Below, piece by piece: positions 921-63,188 of a DNA stretch of 64,000 nucleotides (its first letter is position 1; each line of letters starts with the position of its first letter). Location: NCBI RefSeq assembly GCF_988243305.1, contig NZ_OZ547136.1; one strand, written 5' to 3'. Under the pieces are notes generated by a model, which saw only the letters and a list, made by a program, of their open reading frames with translations, searched no databases and had not been told where the DNA came from. The position numbers and the translations under genes were made by a program.

Positions 921-2099
921 ATGACGTTATTAGGCACTGCGCTGCGTCCGGCAGCAACTCGCGTGATGTTATTAGGCTCCGGTGAACTGGGTAAAGAAGT
1001 GGCAATCGAGTGTCAGCGTCTCGGCGTAGAAGTGATTGCCGTTGATCGCTATGCCGACGCACCAGCCATGCATGTCGCGCATCGCTCCCATGTCATTAAT
1101 ATGCTTGATGGTGATGCATTACGCCGTGTGGTTGAACTGGAAAAACCACATTATATCGTGCCGGAGATCGAAGCTATTGCCACCGATATGCTGATCCAAC
1201 TTGAAGAGGAAGGACTGAATGTTGTCCCCTGCGCGCGCGCAACGAAATTAACGATGAATCGCGAGGGTATCCGTCGCCTGGCGGCAGAAGAGCTGCAGCT
1301 GCCCACTTCCACTTATCGTTTTGCCGATAACGAAAACCTTTTCCGCAAGGCGGTTGCTGACATCGGCTATCCCTGCATTGTTAAACCGGTGATGAGTTCC
1401 TCCGGCAAGGGGCAGACGTTTATTCGTTCTGCAGAGCAACTTGCTCATGCATGGGAGTACGCTCAGCAAGGCGGTCGCGCCGGAGCGGGCCGCGTAATTG
1501 TTGAAGGCGTCGTTAAGTTTGACTTCGAAATTACCCTGCTAACCGTCAGCGCGGTGGATGGCGTCCATTTCTGTGCACCAGTAGGTCATCGCCAGGAAGA
1601 TGGCGACTACCGTGAATCCTGGCAACCACAGCAAATGAGCCAGCTTGCCCTTGAACGTGCGCAAGAGATTGCCCGTAAAGTGGTGCTGGCACTGGGCGGT
1701 TATGGTCTGTTTGGTGTCGAGCTGTTTGTCTGTGGTGATGAGGTGATTTTCAGTGAGGTCTCCCCTCGTCCACATGATACCGGGATGGTGACGTTAATTT
1801 CTCAGGATCTCTCAGAGTTTGCCCTGCATGTGCGAGCCTTTCTCGGACTTCCGGTTGGCGGGATCCGTCAGTATGGTCCTGCAGCTTCTGCCGTTATCCT
1901 GCCACAACTGACCAGTGAGAATGTCACGTTTGATAATGTGCAGAATGCCGTAGGCGCAGGTTTGCAGATTCGTTTATTTGGTAAGCCGGAAATTGATGGC
2001 AGCCGTCGTCTGGGGGTGGCACTGGCTACTGCAGAGAGTGTTGATGAAGCGATTGATCGCGCAAAGCACGCCGCAGCACAGATAAAAGTACAAGCTTAA
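921..2099 (+). CDS. purT: Phosphoribosylglycinamide formyltransferase 2 (formate-dependent GAR transformylase)
   Basis: 392-aa ORF, ATP-grasp fold, matches remembered PurT. Confidence 0.95.
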
Positions 2100-2119
2100 C
2101 CCCGGCGAAAAACGCTACC

Positions 2120-2148
2120 AAAATGCCCGATCGAGGATCGGGCATTTT
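2120..2148. terminator. Bidirectional intrinsic terminator between purT and eda
   Basis: Perfect hairpin aaaatgcccgatc/gatcgggcatttt flanked by A and T runs, between convergent genes. Confidence 0.6.
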
Positions 2149-2153
2149 GACTT

Positions 2154-2795
2154 TTACAGCTTAGCGCCTTCTACAGCTTCACGCGCCAGCTTAGTAATGC
2201 GGTCGTAATCGCCCGCTTCCAGCGCATCTGCCGGAACCAGCCAGGAGCCACCGATGCACAGCACGCTTTTCAGCGCCAGGTAGTCACGGTAGTTAGCCGG
2301 AGAAATACCACCCGTCGGGCAGAAACGGACCTGGGAGAACGGACCCGCGATTGCCTGCAGGGCTTTCACGCCGCCGTTAGCTTCAGCCGGGAAGAATTTG
2401 AACTCTTTCAAACCGTAGTCCATACCCAGCATCAGTTCGGAAACAGTGCTGATCCCCGGAATCAGAGGAATAGTCCCTTCGGTAGCAGCCTTCAGCAGCG
2501 GCTCGGTCAGACCCGGGCTAATTGCGAACTGTGCACCCGCTTCGGTGACTTCTGCCAGCTGCTGTGGATTCAGCACCGTACCGGCACCCACAATCGCTTC
2601 AGGCACTTCTTTGGCGATAGCACGGATAGCGTCAACTGCACACTCGGTACGCAGAGTCACTTCCAGAACGCGCACCCCACCAGCAACCAACGCTTTTGCC
2701 ATCGGCACCGCGTGTTCCAGTTTTTTTACCACGATAACCGGTACAACCGGGCCGGTGGTCAGGATTGATTCTGCACTTGTTTTCCAGTTTTTCAT
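2154..2795 (-). CDS. eda: KDPG / KHG aldolase
   Basis: 213-aa ORF matching remembered Eda; Entner-Doudoroff operon context. Confidence 0.95.
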
Positions 2796-2831
2796 CAGAG
2801 TTTTCTCTCGCCTGATTACAAATTTGTCGTC

Positions 2832-4643
2832 TTAAAAAGTGATACAGGTTGCGCCCTGTTCGGCACCGGACAGTTTTTCACGCAAGGCGCTGAATAATTC
2901 ACGTCCTGTTCCCACGCGTGACGCGCTCAGGTCAGGAATGTGCGGTTCGCGAGCAGCCAGTTCCGCTTCGTCTACCAGCAGCGTCAGTTCGCCTGTCTGT
3001 CCATTCACACGAATGATGTCCCCGTCGCGCACTTTTGCCAGCAGCCCGCCATCGTAGGCTTCTGGTGTTACGTGGATAGCTGACGGCACTTTACCTGAAG
3101 CGCCGGAGAGTCGTCCATCGGTAACTAACGCAATTTTGAAACACCGGTCCAATAATACACCAAGTGGCGGCATGAGTTTATGTAATTCTGGCATTCCGTT
3201 CGCTTTTGGCCCCTGATGACGGACAACAATGACACAATCGCGGTCCAGCAAACCCGCTTCAAAGGCCGGCATAACGTCATGCTGGCTTTCAAAAACAACC
3301 GCAGGCGCTTCAATCACCTGGTTCTCTACCGGCACGGCAGAGGTTTTCATCACCGCTCGGCCCAGGTTACCGCTTAACACTTTTGTCCCACCATGATGAG
3401 AGAAAGGTTGTTCGAAGGAAGCGATCACATTGTTGTCGAGTGATTTTTCTGCCCCTTCCCGCCAGTCCAGTTCACCATTATTCAGCCATGGTTCAAGGGT
3501 ATAACGAGACAGACCAAAGCCTGCCACCGTATTGACATCTTCATGCAGCAGGCCTGCTTTGAGCAGTTCACGCACCAGAACCGGTACGCCACCTGCCGCC
3601 TGGAAGTGGTTAATATCGGCCGGACCGTTCGGGTAGAGACGTGCCATCAGCGGTACAACATCAGAAAGGTCAGAAAAGTCATCCCAGTTAATCTGAATAC
3701 CGGCCGCGCGTGCCATCGCCACCAGGTGCATGGTGTGGTTAGTGGAACCACCGGTCGCCAGCAGTGCAACGATACCGTTCACCACCACTTTCTCATCGAT
3801 CATCTTACCGATCGGCATCCATTCATTACCATTACCGGTCATGCGTGTAACCTGGCGCGCAGCGGCTGCGGTCAAAGCATCGCGCAGCGGAGAATCCGGA
3901 TGAACAAAAGAAGAGCCTGGCAACTGCATCCCCATAAACTCCACCACCATCTGGTTGGTGTTGGCAGTACCGTAGAAAGTACATGTTCCCGGCGCATGAT
4001 AAGACGCGGCTTCTGACTCCAGTAATGCCATGCGGTCCACTTTACCTTCGGCATAAAGCTGGCGAATACGCACTTTTTCTTTATTTGGCAAACCGCTTGC
4101 CATCGGTCCAGACGGCACAAACACCGCAGGCAAATGCCCAAACGACAGGGCTGCCATCGTCAGACCCGGGACAATCTTGTCGCACACACCGAGGAACAGA
4201 GCACCATCAAACATGTTATGGGACAGCCCCACCGCCGCAGACATCGCAATCACTTCGCGGCTTAACAGCGACAATTCCATTCCATCCTGCCCCTGGGTGA
4301 CACCATCACACATCGCCGGAACACCGCCTGCAACCTGACCAACCGCATTTGCTTCATGCAGGGCTTTACGAATGATTTCTGGATAGTGTTCATAAGGCTG
4401 GTGAGCGGAGAGCATGTCGTTATAGGAGGTGATGATGGCGATATTGTTACGCAACATGCTTTTCAATGAGGCTTTGTCTTCTGGCTGGCAGGCAGCGAAA
4501 CCGTGTGCCAGGTTACCGCATGCCAACTGCGAACGATGAACGGTCGAAGTTTTCGCTTGTTCTATCCGGGCGAGATAAGCAGAGCGAGTCTCGCGCGAAC
4601 GTTCAATGATTCGATTTGTTACGCGTAACAATTGTGGGTTCAT
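2832..4643 (-). CDS. edd: Phosphogluconate dehydratase
   Basis: 603-aa ILVD/EDD-family ORF upstream of eda. Confidence 0.95.
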
Positions 4644-4763
4644 AAAGGCTCCTGAAATTGAGTTGTCAGAGCAGGATGATTCACAACGCGTTTCATTCAG
4701 AGGATTTATGACTGAAACGCCTGTAACCGGAGCTCATAGGGCAAAAACGTTTCAGTCAGTGTA

Positions 4764-4798
4764 ATAAAAAAAGCCTCGTGGGTGAATCCGCACGAGGC
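4764..4798 (-). terminator. Intrinsic terminator downstream of zwf
   Basis: Hairpin gcctcgtg...cacgaggc followed on the minus strand by a T run. Confidence 0.55.
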
Positions 4799-4877
4799 CT
4801 GAAAGTGTAAAAATTGTTCTACAATCTGTGCAAGATCATGTTACCGGTAAAATAACCATAAAGGATGAGCGCAGATA

Positions 4878-6353
4878 TTACTCAAACTCATTCCAGGAAC
4901 GACCATCACGGGTAATCATTGCCACCGAGGCAACGGGTCCCCAGGTTCCGGCCTGATACGGTTTCGGCGCATCATTGTCCATCGCCCACGCCTCAGTAAT
5001 GGAGTCTACCCATTTCCAGGCTTCTTCCACTTCATCACGACGAACAAACAGTGCCTGAATACCACGCATGGTTTCCAGCAGCAGACGTTCATAGGCATCC
5101 GCCAGATGCGTCTGATTAAAGGTTTCTGAATAGCTCAGGTCCAGCTTGGTGATTTGCAGGTTATGTTTGTGGTCAAGGCCAGGAACTTTATTCAGTACCT
5201 GGATATCCACGCCTTCATCAGGTTGCAGACGGATAGTCAGTTTATTTTGCGGTAGATCCTGCCACGACTCTTTAAACAGATTCAGTTCAGGTGTTTTGAA
5301 ATAGACCACGACTTCAGAGCATTTGGTCGGCAGACGTTTACCAGTACGCAGGTAGAATGGCACACCGGCCCAGCGCCAGTTATCAATGTCGACGCGGATC
5401 GCCACGAAGGTTTCTGTATTGCTGCTCTTGTTCGCGCCCTCTTCTTCCAGATATCCCGGCACTTTTTTGCCCTGGGCGAAGCCCGCAGTATATTGCCCGC
5501 GTACGGTTTTTTCGCGTACGTTGGAGCGGTCAATACGGCGCAGAGACTTCAGTACTTTCACTTTTTCATCGCGGATGCTGTCTGCACTCAGGTCAGACGG
5601 CGGAGACATCGCAATCATGCAAAGAATTTGCAGCAGGTGGTTCTGGATCATGTCGCGCATCTGACCGGCTTTATCAAAATAGCCCCAGCGCCCTTCGATC
5701 CCCACTTCTTCTGCCACGGTAATCTCAACATGATCGATGGTGCGATTGTCCCAGTTATTCACAAACAGGGAGTTAGCAAAACGCAGCGCCAACAGGTTCA
5801 GCACCGTTTCTTTACCAAGATAGTGGTCGATACGGTAAACCTGGCACTCCTCGAAGTATTCGCCAACCTGATCATTGATTTCCTGCGAGGTCGCCAGCGA
5901 CGTCCCCAGCGGTTTCTCCATGACTACGCGTGCCGGTTTAGCATTCAGTTTTGCCTCACCAAGCCCTTTGCAAATTGCGCCAAAAGTGCTGGGCGGCATA
6001 GCAAAGTAGTTAATGGTGATACGATTTTTTTGATCCAGCATCGCGCCGAGACGGCTGAATGCAGCAGTGTCATTGACATCGAGATTACAAAAATCCAGAC
6101 GTGCACTCAGGGTGTCCCATAAACCTTCATCAATGGTTTCTTTCATGAAAGTTTCGAGCGCCTCGCGGACAACTTTGGTATAAGCCGCTTTATCCCAGTC
6201 AGCACGCCCTACGCCGATAATCCGGGTGTCCGGGTTGAGCTGACCGGCTTTTTCCAGTTGATACAGGGAAGGCAGCAATTTACGACGCGCAAGGTCGCCT
6301 TTCGCGCCGAAAATGACCAGGTCACAGGCCTGGGCTGTTTGCGTTACCGCCAT
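4878..6353 (-). CDS. zwf: Glucose-6-phosphate 1-dehydrogenase
   Basis: 491-aa ORF with G6PD motifs (RIDHYLGKE). Confidence 0.95.
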
Positions 6354-16851: not shown

Positions 16852-18060
16852 TCATAATTTCCCCAAAGCGTAACCATGTGTGAATAAATTTTGAGCTAGT
16901 AGGGTTGCAGCCACGAGTAAGTCTTCCCTTGTTATTGTGTAGCCAGAATGCCGCAAAACTTCCATGCCTAAGCGAACTGTTGAGAGTACGTTTCGATTTC
17001 TGACTGTGTTAGCCTGGAAGTGCTTGTCCCAACCTTGTTTCTGAGCATGAACGCCCGCAAGCCAACATGTTAGTTGAAGCATCAGGGCGATTAGCAGCAT
17101 GATATCAAAACGCTCTGAGCTGCTCGTTCGGCTATGGCGTAGGCCTAGTCCGTAGGCAGGACTTTTCAAGTCTCGGAAGGTTTCTTCAATCTGCATTCGC
17201 TTCGAATAGATATTAACAAGTTGTTTGGGTGTTCGAATTTCAACAGGTAAGTTAGTTGCTAGAACCCATGGCTCCTTTGCCGACGCTGAGTAGATTTTAG
17301 GTGACGGGTGGTGACAATGAGTCCGTGTCGAGCGCTGATTTTTTCGGCCTTTAGAGCGAGATTTATACAATAGAATTTGGCATGAGATTGGATTGCTTTT
17401 AGTCAGCCTCTTATAGCCTAAAGTCTTTGAGTGACTAGATGACATATCATGTAAGTTGCTGATAGGTTTCCAGTTTTCCGCTCCTAGGTCTGCATATTGT
17501 ACTTTTCCTCTTACTCGACTTAACCAGTACCAACCCAGCTTCTCAACGGATTTATACCATGGCACTTTAAAGCCAGCATCACTGACAATGAGCGGTGTGG
17601 TGTTACTCGGTAGAATGCTCGCAAGGTCGGCTAGAAATTGGTCATGAGCTTTCTTTGAACATTGCTCTGAAAGCGGGAACGCTTTCTCATAAAGAGTAAC
17701 AGAACGACCGTGTAGTGCGACTGAAGCTCGCAATACCATAAGTCGTTTTTGCTCACGAATATCAGACCAGTCAACAAGTACAATGGGCATCGTATTGCCC
17801 GAACAGATAAAGCTAGCATGCCAACGGTATACAGCGAGTCGCTCTTTGTGGAGGTGACGATTACCTAACAATCGGTCGATTCGTTTGATGTTATGTTTTG
17901 TTCTCGCTTTGGTTGGCAGGTTACGGCCAAGTTCGGTAAGAGTGAGAGTTTTACAGTCAAGTAATGCGTGGCAAGCCAACGTTAAGCTGTTGAGTCGTTT
18001 TAAGTGTAATTCGGGGCAGAATTGGTAAAGAGAGTCGTGTAAAATATCGAGTTCGCACAT
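16852..18060 (-). CDS. IS10 transposase
   Basis: 402-aa ORF (MCELDILHDSLYQFCPELHLKRLNSL...) matching remembered Tn10/IS10 transposase. Confidence 0.9.
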   Translation of the reverse strand: MCELDILHDSLYQFCPELHLKRLNSLTLACHALLDCKTLTLTELGRNLPTKARTKHNIKRIDRLLGNRHLHKERLAVYRWHASFICSGNTMPIVLVDWSDIREQKRLMVLRASVALHGRSVTLYEKAFPLSEQCSKKAHDQFLADLASILPSNTTPLIVSDAGFKVPWYKSVEKLGWYWLSRVRGKVQYADLGAENWKPISNLHDMSSSHSKTLGYKRLTKSNPISCQILLYKSRSKGRKNQRSTRTHCHHPSPKIYSASAKEPWVLATNLPVEIRTPKQLVNIYSKRMQIEETFRDLKSPAYGLGLRHSRTSSSERFDIMLLIALMLQLTCWLAGVHAQKQGWDKHFQANTVRNRNVLSTVRLGMEVLRHSGYTITREDLLVAATLLAQNLFTHGYALGKL

Positions 18061-18122
18061 CTTGTTGTCTGATTATTGATTTTTGGCGAAACCATTTGAT
18101 CATATGACAAGATGTGTATCTA
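18053..18122 (+). ncRNA. Probable IS10 RNA-OUT antisense RNA
   Basis: Placed from known IS10 architecture (antisense RNA overlapping the transposase start, running toward the outside end); not independently verified in sequence. Confidence 0.35.
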
Positions 18123-20129: not shown

Positions 20130-21902
20130 TCAGTTATTCTCTGCCTTCTTCACAACCTGAATGCTCAGCTCAGCCAGTGCAGTCGGGTTAGCAAAGCTCG
20201 GTGCTTCAGTCATCAGACACGCTGCCGCCGTGGTTTTCGGGAAGGCGATAACGTCACGGATATTGTCGGTGCCGGTCAGCAGCATGGTCAAACGGTCAAG
20301 ACCGAATGCCAGGCCTGCGTGCGGCGGAGTACCGTATTTCAGGGCGTCGAGCAGGAAGCCGAATTTCTCGCGCTGTTCCTCTTCGTTGATACCCAGAATA
20401 CCAAACACCGTCTGCTGCATATCACCATTATGGATACGCACAGAACCACCGCCCACTTCGTAACCATTGATGACCATATCGTAAGCGTTCGCCACCGCAT
20501 TTTCCGGTGCAGCTTTCAGTTCTGCTGCCGTCATGTCTTTTGGTGAGGTGAACGGATGGTGCATTGCCGTCAGGCCGCCTTCACCGTCGTCTTCAAACAT
20601 CGGGAAGTCGATAACCCACAGCGGTGCCCATTTGCTTTCGTCGGTCAGACCAAGGTCTTTACCCACTTTCAGGCGCAGTGCACCCATCGCGTCGGCAACA
20701 ATTTTCTTGTTGTCGGCACCGAAGAAAATCATATCGCCATCTTGCGCGGCAGTACGATCCAGAATGGCTTCGATGATTTCTGCATTAAGGAACTTCGCTA
20801 CCGGGCTGTTGATACCTTCCAGACCTTTCGCGCGCTCGTTAACTTTAATGTAAGCCAGACCTTTCGCGCCGTAGATTTTAACGAAGTTACCGTATTCGTC
20901 GATCTGTTTACGGGTCAGCGATGCGCCGCCCGGAACGCGCAGAGCCGCTACGCGACCTTTCGGATCGTTCGCCGGACCTGCAAATACTGCAAATTCAACG
21001 GATTTCAGCAGATCGGCAACGTCGGTCAGTTCCATCGGGTTACGCAGATCCGGTTTATCAGAGCCGTAACGGCGTTCGGCTTCCGCAAAGGTCATTACCG
21101 GGAAATCGCCCAGATCCACGCCCTTCACTTCCAGCCACAGATGACGCACCAGCGCTTCCATCACTTCACGCACTTGCGGCGCGGTCATGAAAGAAGTTTC
21201 CACATCGATCTGAGTAAATTCAGGCTGACGATCAGCGCGCAGGTCTTCGTCACGGAAGCATTTAACGATCTGATAGTAACGGTCAAAACCGGACATCATC
21301 AGCAGCTGTTTGAACAACTGTGGGGATTGCGGCAGTGCGTAGAATTTACCTTTGTGCACACGAGAAGGCACCAGGTAGTCACGCGCGCCTTCCGGCGTGG
21401 CTTTGGTCAGCATCGGAGTTTCGATGTCGAGGAAGCCGTGGTCATCCATAAAACGGCGCACCAGGCTGGTGATTTTAGCGCGGGTTTTCAGGCGCTGAGC
21501 CATTTCCGGGCGACGCAGGTCGAGGTAGCGGTATTTCAGACGCGCTTCTTCGGTGTTGACGTGGTTAGAGTCAAGCGGCAGAACATCTGCGCGGTTGATG
21601 ATAGTCAGCGAGGACGCCAGCACTTCAATTTCGCCGGTCGCCATATCGCGGTTAATATTTTTTTCGTCACGCGCACGTACGGTGCCCGTGACCTGAATGC
21701 AGAACTCATTACGCAGTTCAGAGGCCAGCTTTAACGCGTCCGCACGATCCGGATCGAAAAATACCTGCACGATACCTTCGCGGTCGCGCATATCGATGAA
21801 GATCAGGCTACCAAGATCACGACGACGGTTGACCCAACCACACAGAGTCACCTGCTGCCCCACGTGGGACAAACGGAGCTGTCCACAATATTCTGTACGC
21901 AT
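20130..21902 (-). CDS. aspS: Aspartate--tRNA ligase
   Basis: 590-aa class II aminoacyl-tRNA synthetase. Confidence 0.95.
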
Positions 21903-22211
21903 GAGATATCCCTTAACTTAGCTGCCGGCGGATGCCCCCTGCTGCGCAGGTGACCAAGTCGCAGCGTTAGCTGTATGTCACAACTGAATGAAAAAAGGCG
22001 GCTATTATACTGGAAATTCTGCCGCACCGTAAGAGCCTGGCCCGCGCTGGAACACCTCGTTACCACTTTATATCGGGCCTGAAATCAGACTCTACGCCAG
22101 TTTGCTATAAAGGTGTTGCCCGAACTCATAAAAATTAACAAAATTTGTCGTTCCGCCATCGGCTAATCGCATTAAGGTGAGAGGCACTATTTTGTTTTGT
22201 CAGGAGTCATC

Positions 22212-22778
22212 ATGCTTGAACTTAATGCTAAAACCACTGCGCTGGTGGTGATTGATTTACAAGAAGGCATCTTACCTTTTGCCGGAGGTCCACATACTGC
22301 CGATGAGGTGGTTAATCGCGCCGGGAAGCTGGCGGCGAAATTTCGCGCGAGCGGTCAGCCCGTGTTTCTGGTGCGCGTTGGCTGGTCTGCCGATTATGCC
22401 GAAGCATTAAAACAGCTGGTTGATGTCCCCTCCCCCGCGAAAGTGTTACCCGAAAACTGGTGGCAACATCCTGCTGCATTAGGTGCAACCGACAGCGATA
22501 TCGAAATCATCAAACGTCAATGGGGTGCGTTTTACGGTACGGATCTGGAGTTGCAACTGCGCCGCCGGGGTATCGATACAATAGTATTATGTGGGATCTC
22601 GACCAATATCGGTGTTGAATCCACCGCCCGCAATGCCTGGGAACTCGGTTTTAATCTGGTGATTGCCGAAGACGCCTGCAGCGCCGCCAGCGCCGAGCAG
22701 CACAATAACAGCATCAACCATATCTACCCACGCATCGCCCGTGTGCGCAGTGTGGAAGAGATCCTCAACGCATTATGA
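22212..22778 (+). CDS. yecD: Isochorismatase-family hydrolase
   Basis: ORF 22197..22778 trimmed to the [17 protein letters not shown] start. Confidence 0.85.
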
Positions 22779-22998: not shown

Positions 22999-23046
22999 TG
23001 CCCCAAAATGCCCCACAACAAATATTTTTGCCCCATGCATGCCCCA
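22999..23046. repeat. Four phased TGCCCCA repeats
   Basis: tgcccca at 22999, 23009, 23029 and 23040, spaced about one or two helical turns. Confidence 0.6.
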
Positions 23047-23067
23047 AAAAATCACTTTCCTTCACCC

Positions 23068-23117
23068 TTGACACTGTTTATCCATACAGTTAAAAATGAT
23101 ACTGTATACAAACACAG
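23068..23117 (+). promoter_or_regulatory. Sigma70-like promoter with two LexA boxes upstream of the dinI-like gene
   Basis: -35 TTGACA (23068-23073), 17-bp spacer, -10 taaaaat (23091-23097); CTGT-N8-ACAG boxes at 23074-23089 and 23102-23117. Confidence 0.6.
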
Positions 23118-23132
23118 TGTAGAGGGACTTTT

Positions 23133-23381
23133 ATGCGTATTGAAATCTGCATAGCCAAAGAAAAAATGACTAAAATGCCAACCGGTGCTGTGGATGCGTT
23201 AAAGGAAGAATTAACTCGGCGCATCAGTAAGCGTTATGACGATGTAGAAGTGATCGTAAAAGCCACCAGCAATGATGGGCTTTCTGTTACACGCACAGCA
23301 GATAAGGATTCTGCAAAAACATTTGTTCAGGAGACTCTGAAAGATACCTGGGAGTCTGCTGACGAGTGGTTTGTTCACTAA
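23133..23381 (+). CDS. DinI-family DNA damage-inducible protein
   Basis: 82-aa ORF, size and sequence character of DinI; SOS boxes upstream. Confidence 0.8.
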
Positions 23382-23448
23382 TAAACACGTAAAATCGGTA
23401 ACGGCTGGAAATCATTCAATACTCGCACTATCGAAAGTTCACCAGCCA

Positions 23449-23495
23449 ACCGCAGCACGTCCTGCATACGTCGTGTCTGCGGTTTTTCTTTTTCG
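23449..23495 (+). terminator. Intrinsic terminator after the dinI-like gene
   Basis: Hairpin ccgcagcacg...cgtgtctgcgg followed by tttttcttttt. Confidence 0.55.
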
Positions 23496-23496
23496 C

Positions 23497-23766
23497 TTAC
23501 ATTGTGTCTGGTTCTTCCGGCCACTCAATATCAGGTGCAGTTGATGTATCAACACGGTTCAGCAACACCCGATATTTATTCCATGCCTCCAGCAACGATC
23601 TTTCTTCCTCCGTTGCGATTTCCAGATCTACAGCATCCTGCAGTGGCGCAATATACTCACTGAATTCCTGGATGTAGAACTGTGTGGTGACGGTCTTCCA
23701 GCCATTCGGCTCCTGCTGTATCGAAGCATACCAGGCTATTTCAATATCGCTATGCTGCGGCAGCAT
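23497..23766 (-). pseudogene. Remnant tail fibre assembly (Tfa-like) gene
   Basis: 89-aa ORF whose last ~50 aa (...[45 protein letters not shown]) duplicate the C-terminus of the tfa at 24546..25130. Confidence 0.65.
23515..23665. repeat. Direct repeat of the tfa 3' end, copy 1
   Basis: About 90% identical over ~150 bp to 24568..24718. Confidence 0.7.
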
Positions 23767-23822
23767 TTAACCCCTTGTAATTCATCGCCATAATTGATTT
23801 AATTCACAAATAAAACTATAAC

Positions 23823-24491
23823 ATGGTGAAATCAATGAAAAAAAACACAGATGATGGGGCTAAAATTTACACACCACTTACCCTAAAGCTTTATGACTGG
23901 TGGGTTTTGGGAGTATCAAATCGGCTTGCATGGGGATGTCCTACAAAGGAACACCTTCTTCCACACTTTCTGGAACATTTAGGTAACAACCATCTGGATA
24001 TTGGTGTTGGAACTGGGTTTTATCTTACTCACGTACCTGAGAGTAGTCTGATATCTTTAATGGATTTGAACGAAGCTAGCCTGAACGCGGCATCTACAAG
24101 GGCTGGGGAATCAAAAATTAAACATAAAATTAGCCATGATGTTTTTGAACCTTATCCCGCGGCGTTACATGGTCAATTTGATTCCATTTCCATGTTTTAC
24201 CTTCTTCACTGCCTGCCTGGAAATATATCTACAAAAAGCTGTGTAATACGCAATGCGGCGCAGGCCTTAACTGACGATGGAACTCTATACGGAGCCACAA
24301 TTCTTGGCGATGGAGTTGTGCACAATAGCTTCGGTCAAAAACTGATGCGCATTTACAATCAGAAAGGCATCTTTTCAAACACAAAAGATTCCGAAGAAGG
24401 CTTAACACATATACTCTCAGAGCATTTCGAGAATGTTAAAACCAAGGTTCAAGGTACTGTAGTAATGTTTTCCGCTTCAGGGAAAAAATAG
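23823..24491 (+). CDS. Class I SAM-dependent methyltransferase-like protein (cargo gene)
   Basis: 222-aa ORF with Rossmann motif-I-like LDIGVGTGFY; opposite strand to the tail genes; substrate unknown. Confidence 0.55.
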   Translation: MVKSMKKNTDDGAKIYTPLTLKLYDWWVLGVSNRLAWGCPTKEHLLPHFLEHLGNNHLDIGVGTGFYLTHVPESSLISLMDLNEASLNAASTRAGESKIKHKISHDVFEPYPAALHGQFDSISMFYLLHCLPGNISTKSCVIRNAAQALTDDGTLYGATILGDGVVHNSFGQKLMRIYNQKGIFSNTKDSEEGLTHILSEHFENVKTKVQGTVVMFSASGKK

Positions 24492-24497
24492 CATCCA

Positions 24498-24529
24498 ACC
24501 GCAGCACGTTCTTGCTTAAGACGTGCTGC
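24498..24529. terminator. Hairpin between the convergent methyltransferase-like gene and tfa
   Basis: Perfect 10-bp stem ccgcagcacg/cgtgctgcgg; T run on the minus-strand side. Confidence 0.5.
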
Positions 24530-24545
24530 GGCATAATCCCAATGA

Positions 24546-25130
24546 TTACTCACTGACAGGGTTCGTAGGCCACTCAATATCAGGTGCAGTTGATGTATCA
24601 ACACGGTTCAGCAACACCCGATACTTCTTCCAGGCTTCCAGCAACGAGTTTTCTTCCTCCGTTGCGATTTCCAGATCTGCAGCATCCTGAAGCGGCGCAA
24701 TATGCTCACTGGCTACCTGCATCAGGTTGTTTTTTGTTTCTTCCGCCTCCCGGATCCGGAACAGTTTTTCTGCTTCCGTATCCTTCACCCAGGCTGTGCC
24801 GTTCCACTTCTGAAACTCCCCTTCCGGCGATAACCAGGTAACATTTTCCGGTAACGGACCGAGTTCAGAAATAAATAACGCGTCGCCGGAAGCCACGTCA
24901 TAAACCGTTTTACCCCGATGGTCTTCAAAGAGATGCCACGATGACTCATCACTGTTGAAAACAGCCACGAAGCCAGCAGGAATATCTGGTGGTGCAATAT
25001 CGGTACTGTTTGCTGGCAGACCTGTATGAGGCGGAATATATGCGTCACCTTCACCAATAAATTCATTAGTTCCGGCCAGCAGATTATAAATTTTTATGGT
25101 CCGTGGTTGTTCACTCATTCTGAATGCCAT
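24546..25130 (-). CDS. tfa: Tail fibre assembly protein
   Basis: 194-aa ORF matching remembered lambda Tfa ([34 protein letters not shown]). Confidence 0.9.
24568..24718. repeat. Direct repeat of the tfa 3' end, copy 2
   Basis: See copy 1. Confidence 0.7.
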
Positions 25131-27826
25131 TATGCAAGCCTCACAATGTAGTTAAATGCGATGTTTTTGACGGTGTTTTCCGCGTTACCCGCAGCGTTAA
25201 CGGTGATGGTATGTCCATGTGAACCAATCGCAACGGAGTGCGTATGAGCACCAATACCGACAGTATGCGCGTGTGCACCTGCAGATGCTGCTGTGCCGGA
25301 CAGTGAGTGGCTATGATTACCATCTGTACTGGTATTCGCTAACCACCCCGTAGACATACCTACTGAGCCTTGTACACCCCAGGTATTTTGACCTGAGCTT
25401 GTATAACCATATTGATAAGTATCTTTAAAAACACTGGGGTTAAATCGACGGCCATCTCTATGGCTGTGATTACCAGCTGCATTCGTGCTGCCACTTAAAC
25501 TATGGGTATGCGCACCAGTGTTATTCGTGGATTTAGTGCCGTAATCAAACGACGATGTGGTTTTCGTCCCCAAATCCGTACTGGATGCGCTGGCGCTGTG
25601 GGTGTGCGATTTAATGCCGTCCCGTTCCTGAGACAATACGGCACGACCACTGGCAGGTTTGCCCTTAATCGTCCAGCCACGCATATCAGGGATCACGCCT
25701 GACGGATAAGCGGCTGCAAGTTCCGGGTAGGCAGATTTGTCAAAAGTCTGCCCCTGCATCAGGGCATAACCAGACGGAACGGTATCCGATGGCCACGGGA
25801 TTGGTGCGCCAGGCGGATAAAACTGCTCTGATGGCGTATAGAGTGAATAAACTGTACCGTCCGTTAACCCTTCCGGCTTATTAGCAGAATATGCTGGTGA
25901 CGTATGAATCGTCACGCTGGCATTACTGGTATAATCCCATTGAATATTTACACCAGTCGCATAATTTCCGATTGCAACGTAAATATCGTAAGTATCACCA
26001 GATGTATTGACCCAGGCAAAATTTGTAAACCCTGTCGATGTGCGCTGCCATAAAGCACCAGTAATCCCCTTCGGATTACCATTACCTGCACGCAAAACAA
26101 GTTCAGATATACCTGCCTGTTGAGGTGAACCGACGTTAAATCCAGCGCCACCAATCAACGTAATTGAAACAACAGAACTCGCCTGTGGCATGGTTACCGT
26201 TGCTAATTTGAACCAACCAGCACCACCGCTGAATGACATTGTTGTTGAGTTAAGCGTACCAATATCTTTCGGCGTCAGTGTTATATCCTCCGAAAGCGCC
26301 TTACCATTCACCTTACGGTCAGAAGGTACCCGATCATTCGCATTGTCATTCGCTGCTTTAACTGCCTTCGGTGTCGCGGCAAGCGTTTCAGACGTACTGT
26401 TTGTCGCACTGCTGAGCTGTACTATCCCCTTTTTCGTCGTGCTCGCATCCTCAAGCGCCACGGCGGATGCAATATCCTCTGCCCGTTTTGCCGCTGTCTC
26501 AGCGCGCGTTGCTGCGGATTCTGCCGTACTTTTGCTCTGTGCTGCCGCTGTCGCACTGCCAGCAGCCTCTGTCGCCTTTGTGGATGCCGTCGTGGCGCTG
26601 CTCTTCGCTGCTGACGCCTGTCTGGTCGCCTCATCTTTTGAAGCAGACGCCGATGATGCCGATGACGCCGCCGAACTGGCGGACGATGCCGCTGCCGTTT
26701 TTGAGGATTCTGCGCTGGTTTCCGACGCTTTCGCGTTCGTTTCGGATGTCTTCGCTGAGGAAGCAGACCTCGCTGCTGCGCTGGCCTGTTCAGTGGCTTC
26801 GCCAGTCTTCGTTGTGGCTGTTGAAGCGGATGATGCGGCGCTTTCTGCCGATTTTCCGGCGGCGGTGGCACTGACTGAGGCCTGCCCGGCACTTGTTGAT
26901 GCGGCACTGGCGGACGACGCAGCCGCTGTTTTTGAATCTGCCGCAGCTGAGGCACTCTGTCCCGCTGCCGTTTCAGAAGACCTGGCGTTCGTCTCGGACG
27001 TTTTGGCCGCCTTCGCAGAATTTGCTGTCGCCGTTGCCGAGGAAGCTGCGCTGCTGGCGCTCGAGGCTGCGCTCGTTTCTGATGATTTTGCCGCCTCTTT
27101 TGAAGCCGACGCATCCCGGGCTGAGGTGGCAGCTTCTGACGCTTTCGTGGTCGCGGTGGATGCAGAAGTGGCTGCTGATTGTTGTGACGCTGCGGCATTC
27201 GTTTCTGACGTTTTCGCCGCAGCGGCACTGGTGGCCGCCGCGCTTTTTGAGGACTCTGCAGCGGCAGCACTTTTTTCCGCTTCAGTGGCCTTTGTTGATG
27301 CCGTTTCTGCGCTGGAAGACGCTGACTGAGCCGACGACGCGGCCTGTCCGGCTGACATGCTGGCTGCGCGTGCTGAGCCTGCAGCATCAGTCGCATGGGT
27401 TGCCGCCTCACGGGCTGATGTGCTGGCATCGCCGGCTGACTTCTTCGCGGCTGCCGTGTTCTGTGCCACTGCGGACGCGTTACGCTCCACCTCTTCCACC
27501 ATCACTTCAAAACGGCGCAGTGCCTCCGGTCGGACATCATCCTCCGTCATGGCACCGAGAAAATCATTCAGCGTACCTGGTCTGGAACCTTCATAGACGG
27601 TAATGGTCCCGGCATGTGAAGGCGGAAAACCTTCAACCAGCAGGGTGACGCTGTACTGACCATGCTCAACATCCATGCTGTAACGTCCGGCTTCATCCGG
27701 ATTTTCAGAGGCCACCGTGTTCACCACCACCGTGCTGCTGGTTCGTCTGGCCTTCAGCACAATGGTGCAGTTCTGTACTGGTTTTCCTGTGCCATCTTTA
27801 AGCACGCCAGAAATTTTTACTGTCAT
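25130..27826 (-). CDS. stf: Side tail fibre protein with expanded Ala/Ser/Thr-rich repeats
   Basis: 898-aa ORF; N-terminus ([22 protein letters not shown]) and C-terminus (...[24 protein letters not shown]) match remembered lambda Stf. Confidence 0.9.
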
Positions 27827-51849: not shown

Positions 51850-53703
51850 TTATGATGATGCCGGTGCATTTATCTCCAGCACCAGACTTTCTATCTCAAC
51901 GCCATACGCTGCATTTTTGGTAATATCCGTCAGCGTCAGCGCATTCAGCCCCAGTGTCAGACTGTCTTTTATGACCTGGAATGCCGGGCCAGCCACTCCA
52001 TTCAGTTTCGGAGTAACCGTGGCACTGCCGGCGGTGAACACCAGTTCCAGCGTCTGCCAGTCATTACTGTAATTCCCGAACTCGCCCAACTTTGTGTTTC
52101 CTGCTTTCTTGTGATGCATCAGATTCAGTTTGCCGTCTGTGGTCTGGGTGAAGAACGACATCAGGAACGGGTTACCAGTCCCGGCCATCGCCACGACGTC
52201 AGGTAACGCTACATCGGTATACAGATAAATTCCCAGGCCGAACTGGTTGTTGGTCAGTGCGCCTGACAGTCGAAACTTACAGCTCAGTCTGCCACCCCGT
52301 GTCAGCAGGGAGACTGCGTCATCCACCGGATGCATCAGGGACCAGGTTTTATTGCTCTGCTTGGCGATCTTAAATACACCACCCGACAACTGAATTCCGC
52401 CGTCCTTAATGGTCCAGCCCTGCGCAGCAGCCTCTCCGGCTGTCGGCAACAGGGAGATTGTGCGTACGGATGCATCTTCAGACGGCCCCGATGGCGTGTT
52501 GCCGCCGGGCGAGGGTTTGATTTCCGGTGCCTTACCACTGATGAAAGCTGAGGTGCGCCCGGCTGCGTTCAGAATAGCGGTTGCCATACGATCCGGAATA
52601 ATGCTCCTGCGCGCCCATGAACTGAAATGTGTCGGGCGGTTTGATGATACCTGGTTTCCATTCGTTCTCGATGCCGCACCGTAATATCCTGATGCCGGAA
52701 TATCCGGATCTTCTGCCGGTGCGTTAGTGGCGGTATTGACGCCGTTACCGTCTGTCATGAAGGGCACAAAATAAACGCCCTCACTCTCCCTGTTTTTATA
52801 CCCGCCGTACACGGTGTCGTACTGGGTAGCGTATGTATTTTTCCAGTAATACGTCGTGTCACCACAAATCCACGGCACATTTACAGCACTACCACCATGA
52901 CACTGCGCGTTAAACACAGTGAGGTCAGCACGAAACTGCTTCAGCATGGCTGTAAACAGCGCAGGTTGCTGTGCGTAGGTGGCGGCGTTCATGTCAAACT
53001 CTCCCTGCATCCAGCACACCGCCAGCAACACATTTTTCGGGTTCTTCTGTAATGCAGCTTTAGTGCGCGCAATCAGGTCCTGATATAACGGTTTACCCAC
53101 ACCCCAGCGTGCCGAATCCTGGCTGGCCCCCGCGTCCGCACTGAATGTCCCCTCCGCGCCCTTGGTGAATGCCGAACCACCACGACAGCATGGTACCAGC
53201 AGGATCCCCGCGTTATTCGGGATATACGGGAGCAGTTTTTTGGCAATATGTAAGCCCTGGCCGACACAGCCGTACTGCCCTTTGCTCAGGTCTGCCTTCG
53301 GATGATTCAGCGTACTCATATCCTGCACATCATGCAGACAGTGGTCAGCCGGGATGATGTCGTTATACGTACAACTCTCTCCACCCGGAGTTACCGTGCT
53401 GCGGCGCGCCAGCTGTTTAATGCGCGGATCCGGAGCATCGTAAGAATCCGGTAACGGAAGCCCTTCACCGTAGGCCATGCCGTTGGACTGTCCGGCAAGC
53501 ACAACCACGTAGAACCAGTCCGGCTCAGATGAAGGGCCGACCTGTGGATCTCCTTCAATAGCCACCGCCTGCATCAGTGTGTACGGCGTAATGGCAACCG
53601 GTCCGCCATATGGCTGCCAGCCCTCTTTCAGTTTGTGTGTCAGCTTTTCCGCAAGGTCTGACGGCGACGCCGCCCTGACAACATCATAGTGTTTAAATGC
53701 CAT
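51850..53703 (-). CDS. Prophage sialate O-acetylesterase (NanS-p / YjhS-like)
   Basis: 617-aa ORF in the position this gene holds in Stx-type phages, between the tRNA cluster and S. Confidence 0.8.
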   Translation of the reverse strand: MAFKHYDVVRAASPSDLAEKLTHKLKEGWQPYGGPVAITPYTLMQAVAIEGDPQVGPSSEPDWFYVVVLAGQSNGMAYGEGLPLPDSYDAPDPRIKQLARRSTVTPGGESCTYNDIIPADHCLHDVQDMSTLNHPKADLSKGQYGCVGQGLHIAKKLLPYIPNNAGILLVPCCRGGSAFTKGAEGTFSADAGASQDSARWGVGKPLYQDLIARTKAALQKNPKNVLLAVCWMQGEFDMNAATYAQQPALFTAMLKQFRADLTVFNAQCHGGSAVNVPWICGDTTYYWKNTYATQYDTVYGGYKNRESEGVYFVPFMTDGNGVNTATNAPAEDPDIPASGYYGAASRTNGNQVSSNRPTHFSSWARRSIIPDRMATAILNAAGRTSAFISGKAPEIKPSPGGNTPSGPSEDASVRTISLLPTAGEAAAQGWTIKDGGIQLSGGVFKIAKQSNKTWSLMHPVDDAVSLLTRGGRLSCKFRLSGALTNNQFGLGIYLYTDVALPDVVAMAGTGNPFLMSFFTQTTDGKLNLMHHKKAGNTKLGEFGNYSNDWQTLELVFTAGSATVTPKLNGVAGPAFQVIKDSLTLGLNALTLTDITKNAAYGVEIESLVLEINAPASS

Positions 53704-54192
53704 GAATCCTCCCGGCCGGGATAATATTGTGAGTAAAATGAGGAGCGGGCTGAAGTCCGGAAGTTACAGGACAATGGCAGAAGAGAGACAATAGCCCGCA
53801 ATACGAAAAAGGCCGCGCTATTGCGCAGAGTGATTACTGTCAGATATTATTCGCCAGCTGAAATATTACTTCACGTTTTGTTGTTTATTCCTTGCCGCCC
53901 GCGTCTCCCTGCGCGGGATTTTTTTGTCCATAAGAAAGCCCCTCCGGAGAGGGGCTGGAGAGTGGCGCTATGTGCCATTGCATGGTGCCGGGTGCCTCCC
54001 GGTGAATTCAGTACCAGCACCTGAATCCGCGATTATCCCATATACCTACTCGCTGATTGCCCCTCCGCACAGGGGGATTCACCATGCCAGTTTCTTTTAA
54101 CAAACTCCCCGCAAAACAGACAACTGTCAACCGTCTGAATTGTGAGACATTTAAAAAAAAGGCCCGCAAAAGCGAGCCAGGGAAAATAAGTG

Positions 54193-54269
54193 TGGCGCGT
54201 TGTACTGGATTCGAACCAGTGACCGATTGCTTAGAAGGCAATTGCTCTGTCCGGCTGAGCTAACAACGC
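54193..54269 (-). tRNA. argO: tRNA-Arg (anticodon UCU), argO-like
   Basis: Hand-folded cloverleaf; anticodon loop CTTCTAA; T-arm GGTTCGAATCC; 3' CCA encoded. Confidence 0.8.
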
Positions 54270-54282
54270 AGGGTACAGATAA

Positions 54283-54359
54283 TGGACCGCCATCGAGGAC
54301 TCGAACCCCGCGCAACCAGCTTCGAAGGCTGGCGCTCTATCCTGATGAGCTAATGGCGG
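54283..54359 (-). tRNA. argN: tRNA-Arg (anticodon UCG), argN-like
   Basis: Hand-folded; anticodon loop CTTCGAA; T-arm GGTTCGAGTCC; 3' CCA encoded. Confidence 0.75.
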
Positions 54360-54366
54360 TATGTGA

Positions 54367-54438
54367 TGGTGGCCCTTGCTGGATTTGAACCAGCGACCTG
54401 GCGATTATGAGTCGCTCTCACCACTGAGCTAAAGGGCC
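54367..54438 (-). tRNA. ileZ: tRNA with CAU anticodon (Ile2/Met type), ileZ-like
   Basis: Hand-folded; anticodon loop CTCATAA; T-arm GGTTCAAATCC; short D-loop; 3' CCA encoded. Confidence 0.7.
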
Positions 54439-54629: not shown

Positions 54630-55263
54630 GAAACTCGTAGAGCAAAAGTGTTGTTACACTAACTTCGTCACAGGGTTATCCTGCAATACTCAAAATACAC
54701 AATATTTACAAAACTAATAGTATACAAGGCGATCTTTAAGATTTTGTTATAAATTATTGCCTTTCTCCTCTTTCCATGAGCTTTCTGGGTAGCCACAGAA
54801 TTCCGGGTACAGAAAAACCCGCTCAGCGGCGGGTTTAAGCTGTGTGACGAAGTAACCACTCTTAACAGCATAACCAATTTTTTACGTACGTAAACCACTA
54901 AATGATATTTGCGAGAATGCTACCGAGTATTGAAAACACCACTACAAATACATAAGCAAATCTCAACAAATAACCAACAAATAATTTCCAGTGTTATTTT
55001 TAGCCGGTTTAAATTGAACCTTCAAATTATAGAGCACTTATAAATAACAGCCGTTAATATAAATTGGCTAATAGATTTATTTTTATTCAGCCAAGAGCCA
55101 TGAATAGGATTCGATAGAAAAAAGTTCAGATAAAAATAGAGATCTACTTCACAAATCAAACGAGAAACCAAAACTAACATCTTGAAATAATCACATTGAT
55201 TAGATGAATATTTATCGCGCAGTGACATCATTTTTTAATAATAGTTCAAAAAAAGGGCTCACG

Positions 55264-56346
55264 ATGAAAAAATTAACAGTGGCAATTTCTGCTGTAGCTG
55301 CATCAGTACTGATGGCGATGTCTGCTCAGGCAGCTGAAATTTATAATAAAGACAGTAACAAGCTGGATCTGTACGGGAAAGTTAATGCTAAGCACTATTT
55401 CTCCTCTAATGATGCAGATGATGGTGATACTACTTATGCCCGTCTTGGCTTCAAAGGTGAAACCCAAATCAACGATCAACTGACTGGTTTCGGTCAGTGG
55501 GAATATGAATTCAAAGGCAACCGCGCTGAATCTCAAGGTTCCTCCAAAGATAAAACCCGTCTTGCCTTCGCTGGCCTGAAATTCGGTGACTACGGCTCAA
55601 TCGATTACGGCCGTAACTACGGTGTAGCATACGACATCGGTGCGTGGACTGACGTTCTGCCAGAATTCGGTGGCGATACCTGGACCCAAACAGATGTGTT
55701 CATGACTGGTCGCACCACTGGTGTTGCAACTTATCGTAACAACGACTTCTTTGGTCTGGTTGATGGTCTGAACTTTGCTGCTCAGTATCAGGGTAAAAAT
55801 GACCGCACTGACGTAACTGAAGCTAATGGTGATGGTTTCGGTTTCTCCACTACTTATGAGTATGAAGGATTCGGTGTAGGTGCAACCTATGCTAAATCTG
55901 ACCGCACTAATAATCAGGTTATCTACGGTAACAACAGCCTGAATGCATCTGGTCAAAATGCTGAAGTATGGGCAGCTGGTCTGAAATATGATGCGAACAA
56001 CATCTATCTGGCTACCACCTATTCTGAAACCCAGAACATGACTGTTTTTGGTAATAACCATATTGCCAACAAAGCACAAAACTTCGAAGTAGTTGCACAA
56101 TATCAGTTCGACTTCGGTCTGCGTCCGTCCGTTGCTTACCTGCAATCTAAAGGAAAAGACTTGGGTGCGTGGGGTGATCAGGACCTGGTTGAATATATTG
56201 ATGTAGGTGCAACCTATTACTTCAACAAAAATATGTCCACTTTTGTTGATTACAAAATCAACCTGATTGATAAGAGCGATTTCACGAAAGCATCTGGCGT
56301 TGCTACCGATGATATCGTTGCTGTAGGTATGGTTTACCAGTTCTAA
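55264..56346 (+). CDS. Prophage-encoded OmpC/OmpF-family porin (NmpC/Lc-like)
   Basis: ORF 55204..56346 trimmed to the [23 protein letters not shown] signal peptide; ends in ...VGMVYQF; opposite strand to the late operon. Confidence 0.9.
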
Positions 56347-62041: not shown

Positions 62042-62232
62042 GGACGCACCTCCACCGTAGTTACGTATTTAACCGGGCTACCTTTCATTGAGATGGTTTC
62101 ACACATCTCTGCCGCTTTCAGTTCCGCTGTTTTTCTGGATTTATAGCGACGGTGCCAGACAGATACATCCGTGCGAACTGATACATCGTTTCTGTATTCC
62201 GTAGTGGAGATGATGATTTCGTAACTAATCAT
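62038..62232 (-). CDS. Hypothetical protein (64 aa)
   Basis: ORF only. Confidence 0.3.
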   Translation of the reverse strand: MISYEIIISTTEYRNDVSVRTDVSVWHRRYKSRKTAELKAAEMCETISMKGSPVKYVTTVEVRP

Positions 62233-62780
62233 GGGCGAACCTCCTTGTCAGAACCATTCAGCCTGGAATCAACAAGTGCAGCGCCAAAAACAGCATCACC
62301 AACACGGTCGTACAGTTTGCTAGCCAGCGGAGATTCAACGGCCTTAAGCATTGGATAAAGCTGGCTTGTCCAGATTTGATGGATTTCACGCAAATGCAGG
62401 TATACGCCTCTGGCGTTTCGTGCGACAGCTGACATATCAGACGCATCGGCACCTGATAAACTCTTCTCCATCAGGTTAAAGGCGTTGATGTATGCCTCTT
62501 TGAACCGGGCTGCACGTTTGCCAGTAAAGCCCATAGCAAGGAACGCGAAGCCATCACGGGTGATTTGATAGCAAGGTAGTTTGCGGCCTGTGCAATCGGT
62601 GTAATCACTCACCGAAAAATTGCGGGCAGTGAATGATGCGGAGCATTCAAGCGTGCGGATCTTTTTCAGTACATCGTCATGACGCTTGGAGAAGAAGTTG
62701 GCAACAGCCAGGGATGAAGTAACAGCCTGACCATCAACGATGGCAATTTCAGGTTGAGTGAGGGTTGGGATCGTAGCCAT
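62229..62780 (-). CDS. Rha-family phage regulatory protein
   Basis: Rha-type motif SKRHDDVLKKIRTL; ORF 62229..63080 trimmed to the ATG at 62780, which has a GGAGG Shine-Dalgarno 8 nt upstream. Start uncertain. Confidence 0.65.
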   Translation of the reverse strand: MATIPTLTQPEIAIVDGQAVTSSLAVANFFSKRHDDVLKKIRTLECSASFTARNFSVSDYTDCTGRKLPCYQITRDGFAFLAMGFTGKRAARFKEAYINAFNLMEKSLSGADASDMSAVARNARGVYLHLREIHQIWTSQLYPMLKAVESPLASKLYDRVGDAVFGAALVDSRLNGSDKEVRP

Positions 62781-63188
62781 GATGGCAGCCTCCGTTGACT
62801 GTGGAAAACTTCCACCACCGGAGCTGCGAAACTCACTGGTGGCAGACTGAACAGGGTTCGCAGTACCGGCGTCAACGGAGACCGGCGAGCCTTTCGGCTC
62901 CCCTGCCCAGCCCACCATAATTCTGGCGTGCGTGAGCGCGGACGATAAAAAAGACGCTGGCGCGTCATATATCGCCGTTGACAATTCCGGGCTGCGACCC
63001 CCGGCACCCGCTTTATAAGGTGCAGAGACAGTGTAACGTCCCGAAATTGCAGAATCAATATTTGGTCTTGAAATGATCATATAGCTGCTGATATCTTTAG
63101 AACTGTTCTTGGATGTTTCGGAGCCGTTTTATGCGAAACAGCTCCCCGTTATTGATGTTGAGTGAGCCGGGTTACTCCCGGCTTTTTT

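Follow-up and report, generated by a model that had tools for sequence, protein, structure and literature searches.

What is a methyltransferase gene doing at the end of a prophage tail operon, on the opposite strand and framed by two copies of the 3' end of a tail fibre assembly gene? The question is raised by a 64,000-nucleotide stretch of DNA (hereafter the window; NCBI RefSeq assembly GCF_988243305.1, contig NZ_OZ547136.1), which comprises Escherichia coli chromosome with aspS and yecD, followed from approximately 22,860 by a lambda-like prophage. The gene, at 23823-24491 (+ strand), is an intact allele of ybcY, encoding a class I S-adenosylmethionine (SAM)-dependent methyltransferase. The reading preferred here, to which a probability of roughly 0.6 was assigned, is that of a moron cassette, shuttled by recombination between repeated tfa 3' ends, whose product would be an active small-molecule methyltransferase in the lysogen.

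Identity, start codon and prevalence of ybcY

The longest open reading frame (ORF) of the gene, 222 residues, matched PHROG 2132 (E = 8e-157, residues 5-222), and the gene is annotated YbcY in phages PhiR26_1 and PhiR68_2. The same arrangement is found in the cryptic prophage DLP12 of K-12, as tfaD (b0561), ybcY (b0562, a pseudogene) and tfaX (b0563). Gene order, orientation, hairpin and spacer are all shared, and the K-12 locus is 96.9% identical to window positions 23520-24984. The K-12 locus differs in that its ybcY is a pseudogene, its tfaD is fused to a terminase remnant, and its left neighbour is appY-ompT, whereas the window has a dinI-like gene and the yecD attachment site. On the PHROG match and the tfaD/tfaX synteny together, the methyltransferase gene is ybcY. 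The locus is already known: a long-annotated, uncharacterised prophage gene, real but ordinary. A first-pass annotation, made from the sequence alone, had described a 222-residue class I methyltransferase-like gene on the strand opposite the tail genes, between a complete tfa and a truncated second copy. The ORFs and Pfam matches agreed with that description; what it had missed was the known tfaD-ybcY-tfaX locus of DLP12-type prophages.

In 31 other taxa the homologues begin with a methionine that aligns with the second ATG of the ORF (23835), and K-12 ybcY is disrupted by a 2-bp deletion that takes the G of this same codon. Taken together, these observations suggest that the true start is probably ATG 23835, giving a product of 218 residues. 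A run of eight A residues follows this ATG (23835-23848, ATGAAAAAAAAC), and the K-12 deletion falls at exactly that spot; the start region of ybcY may be mutation-prone.

ybcY with its upstream spacer (23767-24491) was present in 3,835 of 5,426 complete E. coli genomes (approximately 70%). Carrier genomes held one to four copies. Identity never fell below 95% and for most copies was 99% or higher, a level reached in 2,894 records. The intact 222-residue form was by far the largest sequence cluster, with 6,589 members. A literature search returned no functional study of ybcY and list-type mentions only, namely a promoter-map entry (PMC3946193) and a gene-order mention near ompT. A negative result for Hha toxicity has been reported for a K-12 ybcY mutant.

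Repeated tfa 3' ends and hairpins

The full-length tail fibre assembly gene tfa (24546-25130, - strand; 194 residues, PHROG 105, E = 2e-99) lies to the right of ybcY. The left neighbour of the cassette, and the first gene of the prophage, is dinI-like (23133-23381, + strand; NCBIfam NF007893 DinI, E = 2e-20; PHROG 189). Repeat search and alignment located the tfa 3' end twice in direct orientation, as copy A (23519-23673) and copy B (24568-24722), 155 nt long, 91% identical and sharing a 68-bp identical core. The repeat had been noticed in the first-pass annotation at coordinates a few bases off. Including the hairpin that follows each copy, the two tfa ends are collinear for approximately 230 bp, with a diverged patch of about 55 bp mid-way. 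The 9% divergence between copies A and B shows that two tfa alleles were joined and that the pair is no recent tandem duplication.

The matching hairpins were recovered with cores at 23443-23463 and 24492-24512, a spacing of 1,049 bp that is the same as that of the repeats. Hairpin A (23448-23484) has a folding energy of -19 kcal/mol (z = -4.3; none of 200 shuffled sequences folded as well). A U-run (T-run in DNA) follows it on the + strand, and its appearance is that of an intrinsic dinI terminator, which also closes the tfaX-like ORF. Hairpin B (24499-24531), with the same core, separates ybcY from tfa, whose 3' ends converge on it (-23 kcal/mol on the + strand, -28.5 on the - strand, z about -5).

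Copy A lies in an 89-residue tfaX-like ORF (23497-23766, - strand; PHROG 2341, E = 6e-60), in which approximately 34 unrelated N-terminal residues are fused to approximately 57 C-terminal Tfa residues; Tfa families matched residues 29-88 only. The length of tfaX varies, from 61 residues in K-12 to 89 here and 101 in ev243, and the counterpart in strain N47 was marked as a pseudogene by PGAP. A counterpart of the 34-residue N-terminus is present in Klebsiella phages (51%) and in phage Ayreon (75%), where the region is pieced together from small ORFs. The tfaX-like ORF is probably a recombination remnant.

Three other origins for the repeat were considered and rejected. The Rfam small RNA family IS009 (RF02111) matched both copies, with 224 bits at 24589-24787 (- strand) and 115 bits at 23540-23743 (- strand); with a gathering score of 117 for the family, the second match is sub-threshold. 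The K-12 matches to the model are within tfaD and tfaX, on the sense strand of the tfa coding sequence. A separate small RNA gene was dismissed as the cause of the repeat, since the match lies within tfa coding sequence and most likely reflects tfa conservation. An invertible segment of the Pin/Gin kind was excluded because the tfa copies are direct and not inverted. An assembly artefact, which would have undone the first-pass description, was rejected as well: at least 80% of the 1,181-bp segment was found in 3,416 of the 5,426 complete genomes, and the segment also occurs in sequenced temperate coliphages, e.g. ev243, 2G7b and the PhiR series.

In PhiR68_2 (4419-5592), a ynaE-family gene and a PinQ/PinR-type serine invertase gene lie between hairpin B and tfa. 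This layout indicates that the ybcY cassette can adjoin remnants of invertible tail-fibre segments.

Recombination between the repeats

The junctions were compared across related prophages. Homology broke inside or at the edge of the tfa repeats: at 23520 in K-12 and PhiR68_2, at 23542 in ev243 and PhiR26_1, at 23632 in mEp460 (where dinI, the hairpin and a tfa remnant are present and ybcY is absent), and at 24665 in strain N47 and ev243. The left neighbour of the cassette differs among prophages, being dinI plus an integrase gene, appY-ompT, or an alpha/beta-hydrolase gene plus ompT. The tail-fibre module to the right differs as well.

A synthetic empty-site query was made by joining 23133-23673 to 24723-25130. 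At least 25 genomes contained an uninterrupted match to this query (94-97% identity). In strain S1-ISR-02-A the aspS-yecD site is occupied by the same prophage end (flank 98.3% identical), with exactly the 1,049-bp unit missing; further empty alleles were dusA-integrated prophages, for which strain N47 is the occupied counterpart. At both the yecD and the dusA sites, dinI, hairpin and tfa are contiguous in the empty alleles. Three empty alleles were examined, and each has a lone tfa 3' end that resembles copy A on its hairpin side and copy B on its tfa-body side, with the switch falling within the 68-bp stretch that is identical in both copies. A chimeric single copy of this kind is the pattern predicted by recombination between the two repeats.

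Judged from these alleles, the repeats are a working recombination substrate for gain or loss of the 1,049-bp unit. The first-pass suggestion of recombination at the tfa 3' end is supported directly by the breakpoints and the chimeric empty alleles. The further first-pass suggestion, that the event captured the gene, is one of two directions: a loop-out deletion and a Campbell-type insertion of a circle would both fit, and sequence comparison does not decide between loss and capture.

Putative promoter, base composition and moron features

The AT-rich divergent spacer of 56 bp between the tfaX-like ORF and ybcY (23767-23822) contains TTGATT (23794-23799) and TATAAC (23817-23822) separated by 17 nt. 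In K-12 the same hexamers were reported as a constitutive RpoD promoter of ybcY by genomic SELEX (systematic evolution of ligands by exponential enrichment), together with an H-NS site at the promoter and a divergent tfaX promoter (PMC3946193). The spacer differs from that of K-12 by one base, upstream of the hexamers. A simple consensus scan missed the TTGATT/TATAAC pair and returned a weaker upstream candidate at 23767-23794; that ybcY is expressed from this promoter in the present strain is therefore inferred.

The GC content of ybcY is 39-42%, against 47-51% for tfa and up to 61% for stf. The empty alleles place the cassette between genes that are adjacent in related phages. Given its low GC content and a K-12 promoter that binds RNA polymerase in vitro, ybcY would behave as a classic moron.

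Phage morons include lambda lom and bor and genes of the HK97 gp15 type. Like these, the ybcY cassette is probably an independent transcription unit between genes adjacent in related phages, has lower GC, a putative promoter and a hairpin, and lies at the end of the late operon. Unlike these, it is bracketed by direct repeats of approximately 230 bp of the neighbouring gene's 3' end, which gives it a homologous-recombination route in and out. The architecture is that of a textbook mosaic-phage moron, and the feature is known and annotated.

Fold, motifs and relatives of the enzyme

The YbcY protein matched generic class I methyltransferase Pfam families (Methyltransf_12, E = 6e-9; also Methyltransf_23, _25, _11 and _31). 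SAM motif I (LDIGVGTG, residues 58-65) is invariant in the homologue alignment, and the ribose-binding D81 is invariant in 32 homologues and 44 distant representatives. Both the glycine-rich motif I and the acidic residue ending strand 2 that mark class I SAM methyltransferases are present. An AlphaFold2 model on 32 homologues (predicted local distance difference test score 90.3, predicted template modelling score 0.86) had the class I methyltransferase fold, a seven-stranded beta-sheet of the Rossmann type, with two N-terminal helices.

A profile search of 1.84 billion representatives gave 423 clusters at E <= 1e-30, nearly all of 215-240 residues, which describes a compact family. Residues Y24, H57, G63, D81, S121, H129-C130 (in LLHCLPG), G157, N186, D189, G211 and F216 were invariant in 44 members down to 32% identity. 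H129 and C130 are positioned after strand 4. In class I methyltransferases the substrate-facing catalytic residues sit after strand 4, and by this positional argument H129-C130 would line the active site.

Beyond enterobacterial orthologues, a Foldseek search of AFDB50 returned many fungal and actinobacterial proteins at a template modelling (TM) score of 0.85-0.91 and 33-47% identity. Among them were an entry named 'Methyltransferase verB' (TM 0.90, 36% identity, E = 9e-25), another named 'vrtF', and numerous unnamed fungal relatives at 40-47% identity. DovB, the VerB orthologue, was shown experimentally to O-methylate the alpha-pyrone hydroxyl of fungal polyketides (PMC12312803), and AurB, CtvB and AstB have been reported as O-methyltransferases of the same hydroxyl (PMC12312803; PMC8176439). 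The closest characterised relatives of YbcY are these fungal alpha-pyrone O-methyltransferases (the VerB/DovB, AurB, CtvB group). Likeness extends to a small class I fold of approximately 220-240 residues, and homology was evident in sequence and structure; the fungal enzymes differ in being tailoring enzymes within polyketide synthase (PKS) clusters, whereas ybcY stands alone.

The structural neighbours were small-molecule methyltransferases throughout, and DNA methyltransferases were absent among those ranked. Neither a (D/N/S)PP(Y/F/W) or PC-type motif nor a target-recognition domain was found in the 218 residues. The earlier expectation of a non-DNA-type enzyme is in keeping with both observations. 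Curated sequence libraries added no specific function to this structural placement. NCBIfam gave CpaM and RquA only (E ~ 1e-3, far below cut-offs), and PDB sequence and profile searches gave JHAMT and UbiG only (E = 1e-5 to 1e-3). PADLOC gave mad2 only (E = 0.003, 14 bits), which is generic methyltransferase-domain similarity and identifies no defence system. YbcY most likely acts on small molecules as an O-methyltransferase, by analogy with these relatives.

Homologues and their genomic context

The ybcY family extends at 56-70% identity across Enterobacterales, Aeromonas and Shewanella. In the 11 homologue contexts examined, the gene was stand-alone, with no conserved operon. In Salmonella it lies between a PMT_2 gene and cybB, and stand-alone chromosomal homologues were also seen in Enterobacter, Yersinia and Erwinia; a Klebsiella homologue adjoins LuxR-type regulator genes and an IS1 copy. 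Mobile settings included a Salmonella prophage end (int, DUF3950, methyltransferase, ricin-B lectin), a Citrobacter prophage remnant that also carries sodC, dinI and a gene for a SopA-like effector, a second Citrobacter island in which the homologue adjoins dinI, and a Salmonella contig, possibly a plasmid, with ccdAB and IS elements. The genes that adjoin homologues at prophage ends include sodC, ompT and effector genes.

PKS or other biosynthetic genes were absent from the neighbourhood in the window and in the 11 contexts. For a lone gene that moves readily and needs no partners, a single modification step on a metabolite or xenobiotic is a better fit than work in a pathway or in the assembly of virions.

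Genes for alpha/beta-hydrolases or carboxylesterases recur near homologues, in ev243 (1752-3236), Enterobacter and Erwinia, as do CPBP/Rce1-like genes in Salmonella and Yersinia. A conserved operon was considered for these neighbours and dropped, as the association is too loose; their recurrence may be coincidental, or it may point to chemistry of methyl esters or of bacteriocin immunity.

Proposed mechanism and alternative explanations

In the proposed mechanism, ybcY would have a sigma-70 promoter of its own in the divergent spacer and be read in the direction opposite to the late tail operon, with its transcript ending at the strong hairpin. The cassette is flanked by two diverged copies of a unit made up of the tfa 3' end plus terminator hairpin, and homologous recombination in the 68-bp identical core would insert or delete the 1,049-bp unit. 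Such recombination explains why the cassette is found behind unrelated tail-fibre modules and beside different neighbours. The product, made in the lysogen, would most likely be active in the cytoplasm as a methyltransferase of small molecules. Its probable reaction would be O-methylation of a small hydrophobic metabolite or xenobiotic at an acidic hydroxyl or enol group, and it would serve the host through lysogenic conversion or detoxification, with no role in virion assembly. A narrower version is put forward tentatively, with the odds well against it: YbcY would be an active enzyme of lysogenic conversion whose O-methylation is directed at a single small molecule, for which toxins of the pyrone, quinolone or enol type, antibiotics and metabolites of the gut or host are candidates.

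Several observations weigh against this mechanism. Support for the promoter comes from binding of RNA polymerase in vitro, for K-12, and not from a transcription start mapped in this strain; its -10 hexamer directly adjoins the first ATG and leaves a leader of approximately 5 nt to the second. Hairpin B is followed by no U-run on the ybcY (+) strand and is not a canonical terminator for the gene. The K-12 copy is dead and truncated alleles form sizeable clusters, e.g. a 161-residue form with 445 member sequences, which argues that loss of ybcY is tolerated. Neither a substrate nor a phenotype of ybcY was found in the searchable literature. The fungal relatives work within PKS clusters, ybcY has no biosynthetic neighbours, and the chemistry may not transfer.

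The target could instead be a macromolecule, YbcY being an orphan DNA methyltransferase that protects phage DNA or a modifier of rRNA or protein. This is unlikely, because DNA-methyltransferase motifs and a target-recognition domain are lacking, because the best AFDB neighbours are small natural-product methyltransferases with no close DNA, RNA or protein methyltransferase among them, and because the NCBIfam, PADLOC and PDB sequence matches are weak and generic. The experimental structure ranked highest by Foldseek in the PDB, R. thermophilum PmtA (8ys9; E = 8e-12, TM 0.62-0.65), would suggest a phospholipid N-methyltransferase acting on phosphatidylethanolamine in the lysogen membrane, and the two proteins are similar in size and share N-terminal helices. 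At 16-17% identity, however, and with O-methyltransferase relatives much closer, such an activity is highly improbable.

An anti-phage or superinfection-exclusion role, for YbcY alone or with a TfaX peptide that disturbs assembly of incoming fibres, draws on the position of the cassette, a site at which lambdoid prophages carry genes expressed in the lysogen, e.g. lom and ompT, and on the separate PHROG family (2341) and K-12 SELEX promoter of the tfaX-like ORF. It is unlikely all the same, given the lack of any PADLOC family beyond the weak generic match, a tfaX-like ORF that varies in length and is called a pseudogene by PGAP, and homologues that are ordinary chromosomal stand-alone genes in other genera. 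ybcY might also be a functionless hitch-hiker, kept by linkage to tail-fibre recombination hot spots; a dead K-12 copy, truncated alleles and the dispensability implied by the empty alleles would all be expected. Dominance of the intact form (6,589 member sequences), identity of at least 99% in 2,894 records, and SAM motifs and family-specific residues that are invariant across genera down to 32% identity leave little room for this view. A moron cassette encoding an active small-molecule methyltransferase is preferred to each of these alternatives.

Other features of the window

In the chromosomal part, aspS lies at 20130-21902 (- strand) and yecD at 22197-22778 (+ strand). Upstream of aspS, a 402-residue transposase ORF of the IS4 family (IS10-like) is accompanied by a match to the antisense RNA RNA-OUT (99.5 bits; both within 16852-18122). 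Four TGCCCCA repeats (22999-23049), read by eye near the yecD-side end of the prophage, are candidate integrase arm sites. A LexA-box-like CTG-N10-CAG, also read by eye, lies just 5' of the dinI-like gene (23100-23119, TACTGTATACAAACACAGTG).

Past the cassette, the minus strand carries stf, the gene for the side tail fibre, which precedes tfa in the late operon (25130-27826, - strand; 898 residues in the ORF list, homologue annotated Stf in PhiR26_1), then lom, J and the remaining lambda-type tail and head operon. A long repetitive Ala/Ser/Thr-rich stretch of stf (26200-27400, GC up to 61%) gives rise to spurious long ORFs in other frames.

At 51850-54438, genes for tRNA-Met(CAT), tRNA-Arg(TCG) and tRNA-Arg(TCT) are followed by an STnc100 small RNA match (139 bits) and then a 617-residue ORF with no match in NCBIfam; no ORF of at least 90 residues lies between the tRNAs and the 617-residue ORF. 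We take this region to resemble the late region of Shiga-toxin phages. An OmpC/NmpC-like porin gene (55204-56346, + strand; NCBIfam OmpC subfamily, 518 bits) on the opposite strand of the prophage is a further cargo gene and the counterpart of nmpC in DLP12. At 62229-63080, matches to C4 antisense RNA (78.8 bits) and isrK (58.7 bits) lie over a Rha-family regulator ORF, presumably an early-region immunity module like the c4-ant module of P1/P7-type phages.

Significance

Neither the prevalence and chemistry of ybcY nor its allele pairs overturn current understanding, and interest rests on the chemistry. The pairs of occupied and empty alleles are a clean natural example of conserved tfa 3' ends serving as recombination linkers for cargo exchange in lambdoid phages. 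If the narrower version is correct, the tfa 3' repeats would be a portable homology cassette that moves ybcY between tail-fibre loci. With carriage by approximately 70% of complete genomes and up to four copies in each, ybcY is among the most widespread cargo genes of E. coli prophages, and that its chemistry was never determined is due in part to the dead copy in K-12. Should specific O-methylation hold, some 70% of E. coli would carry a prophage-borne chemical resistance or signalling trait. A substrate for YbcY would give a function to a common accessory gene and could reveal a phage-borne trait of small-molecule modification or resistance.

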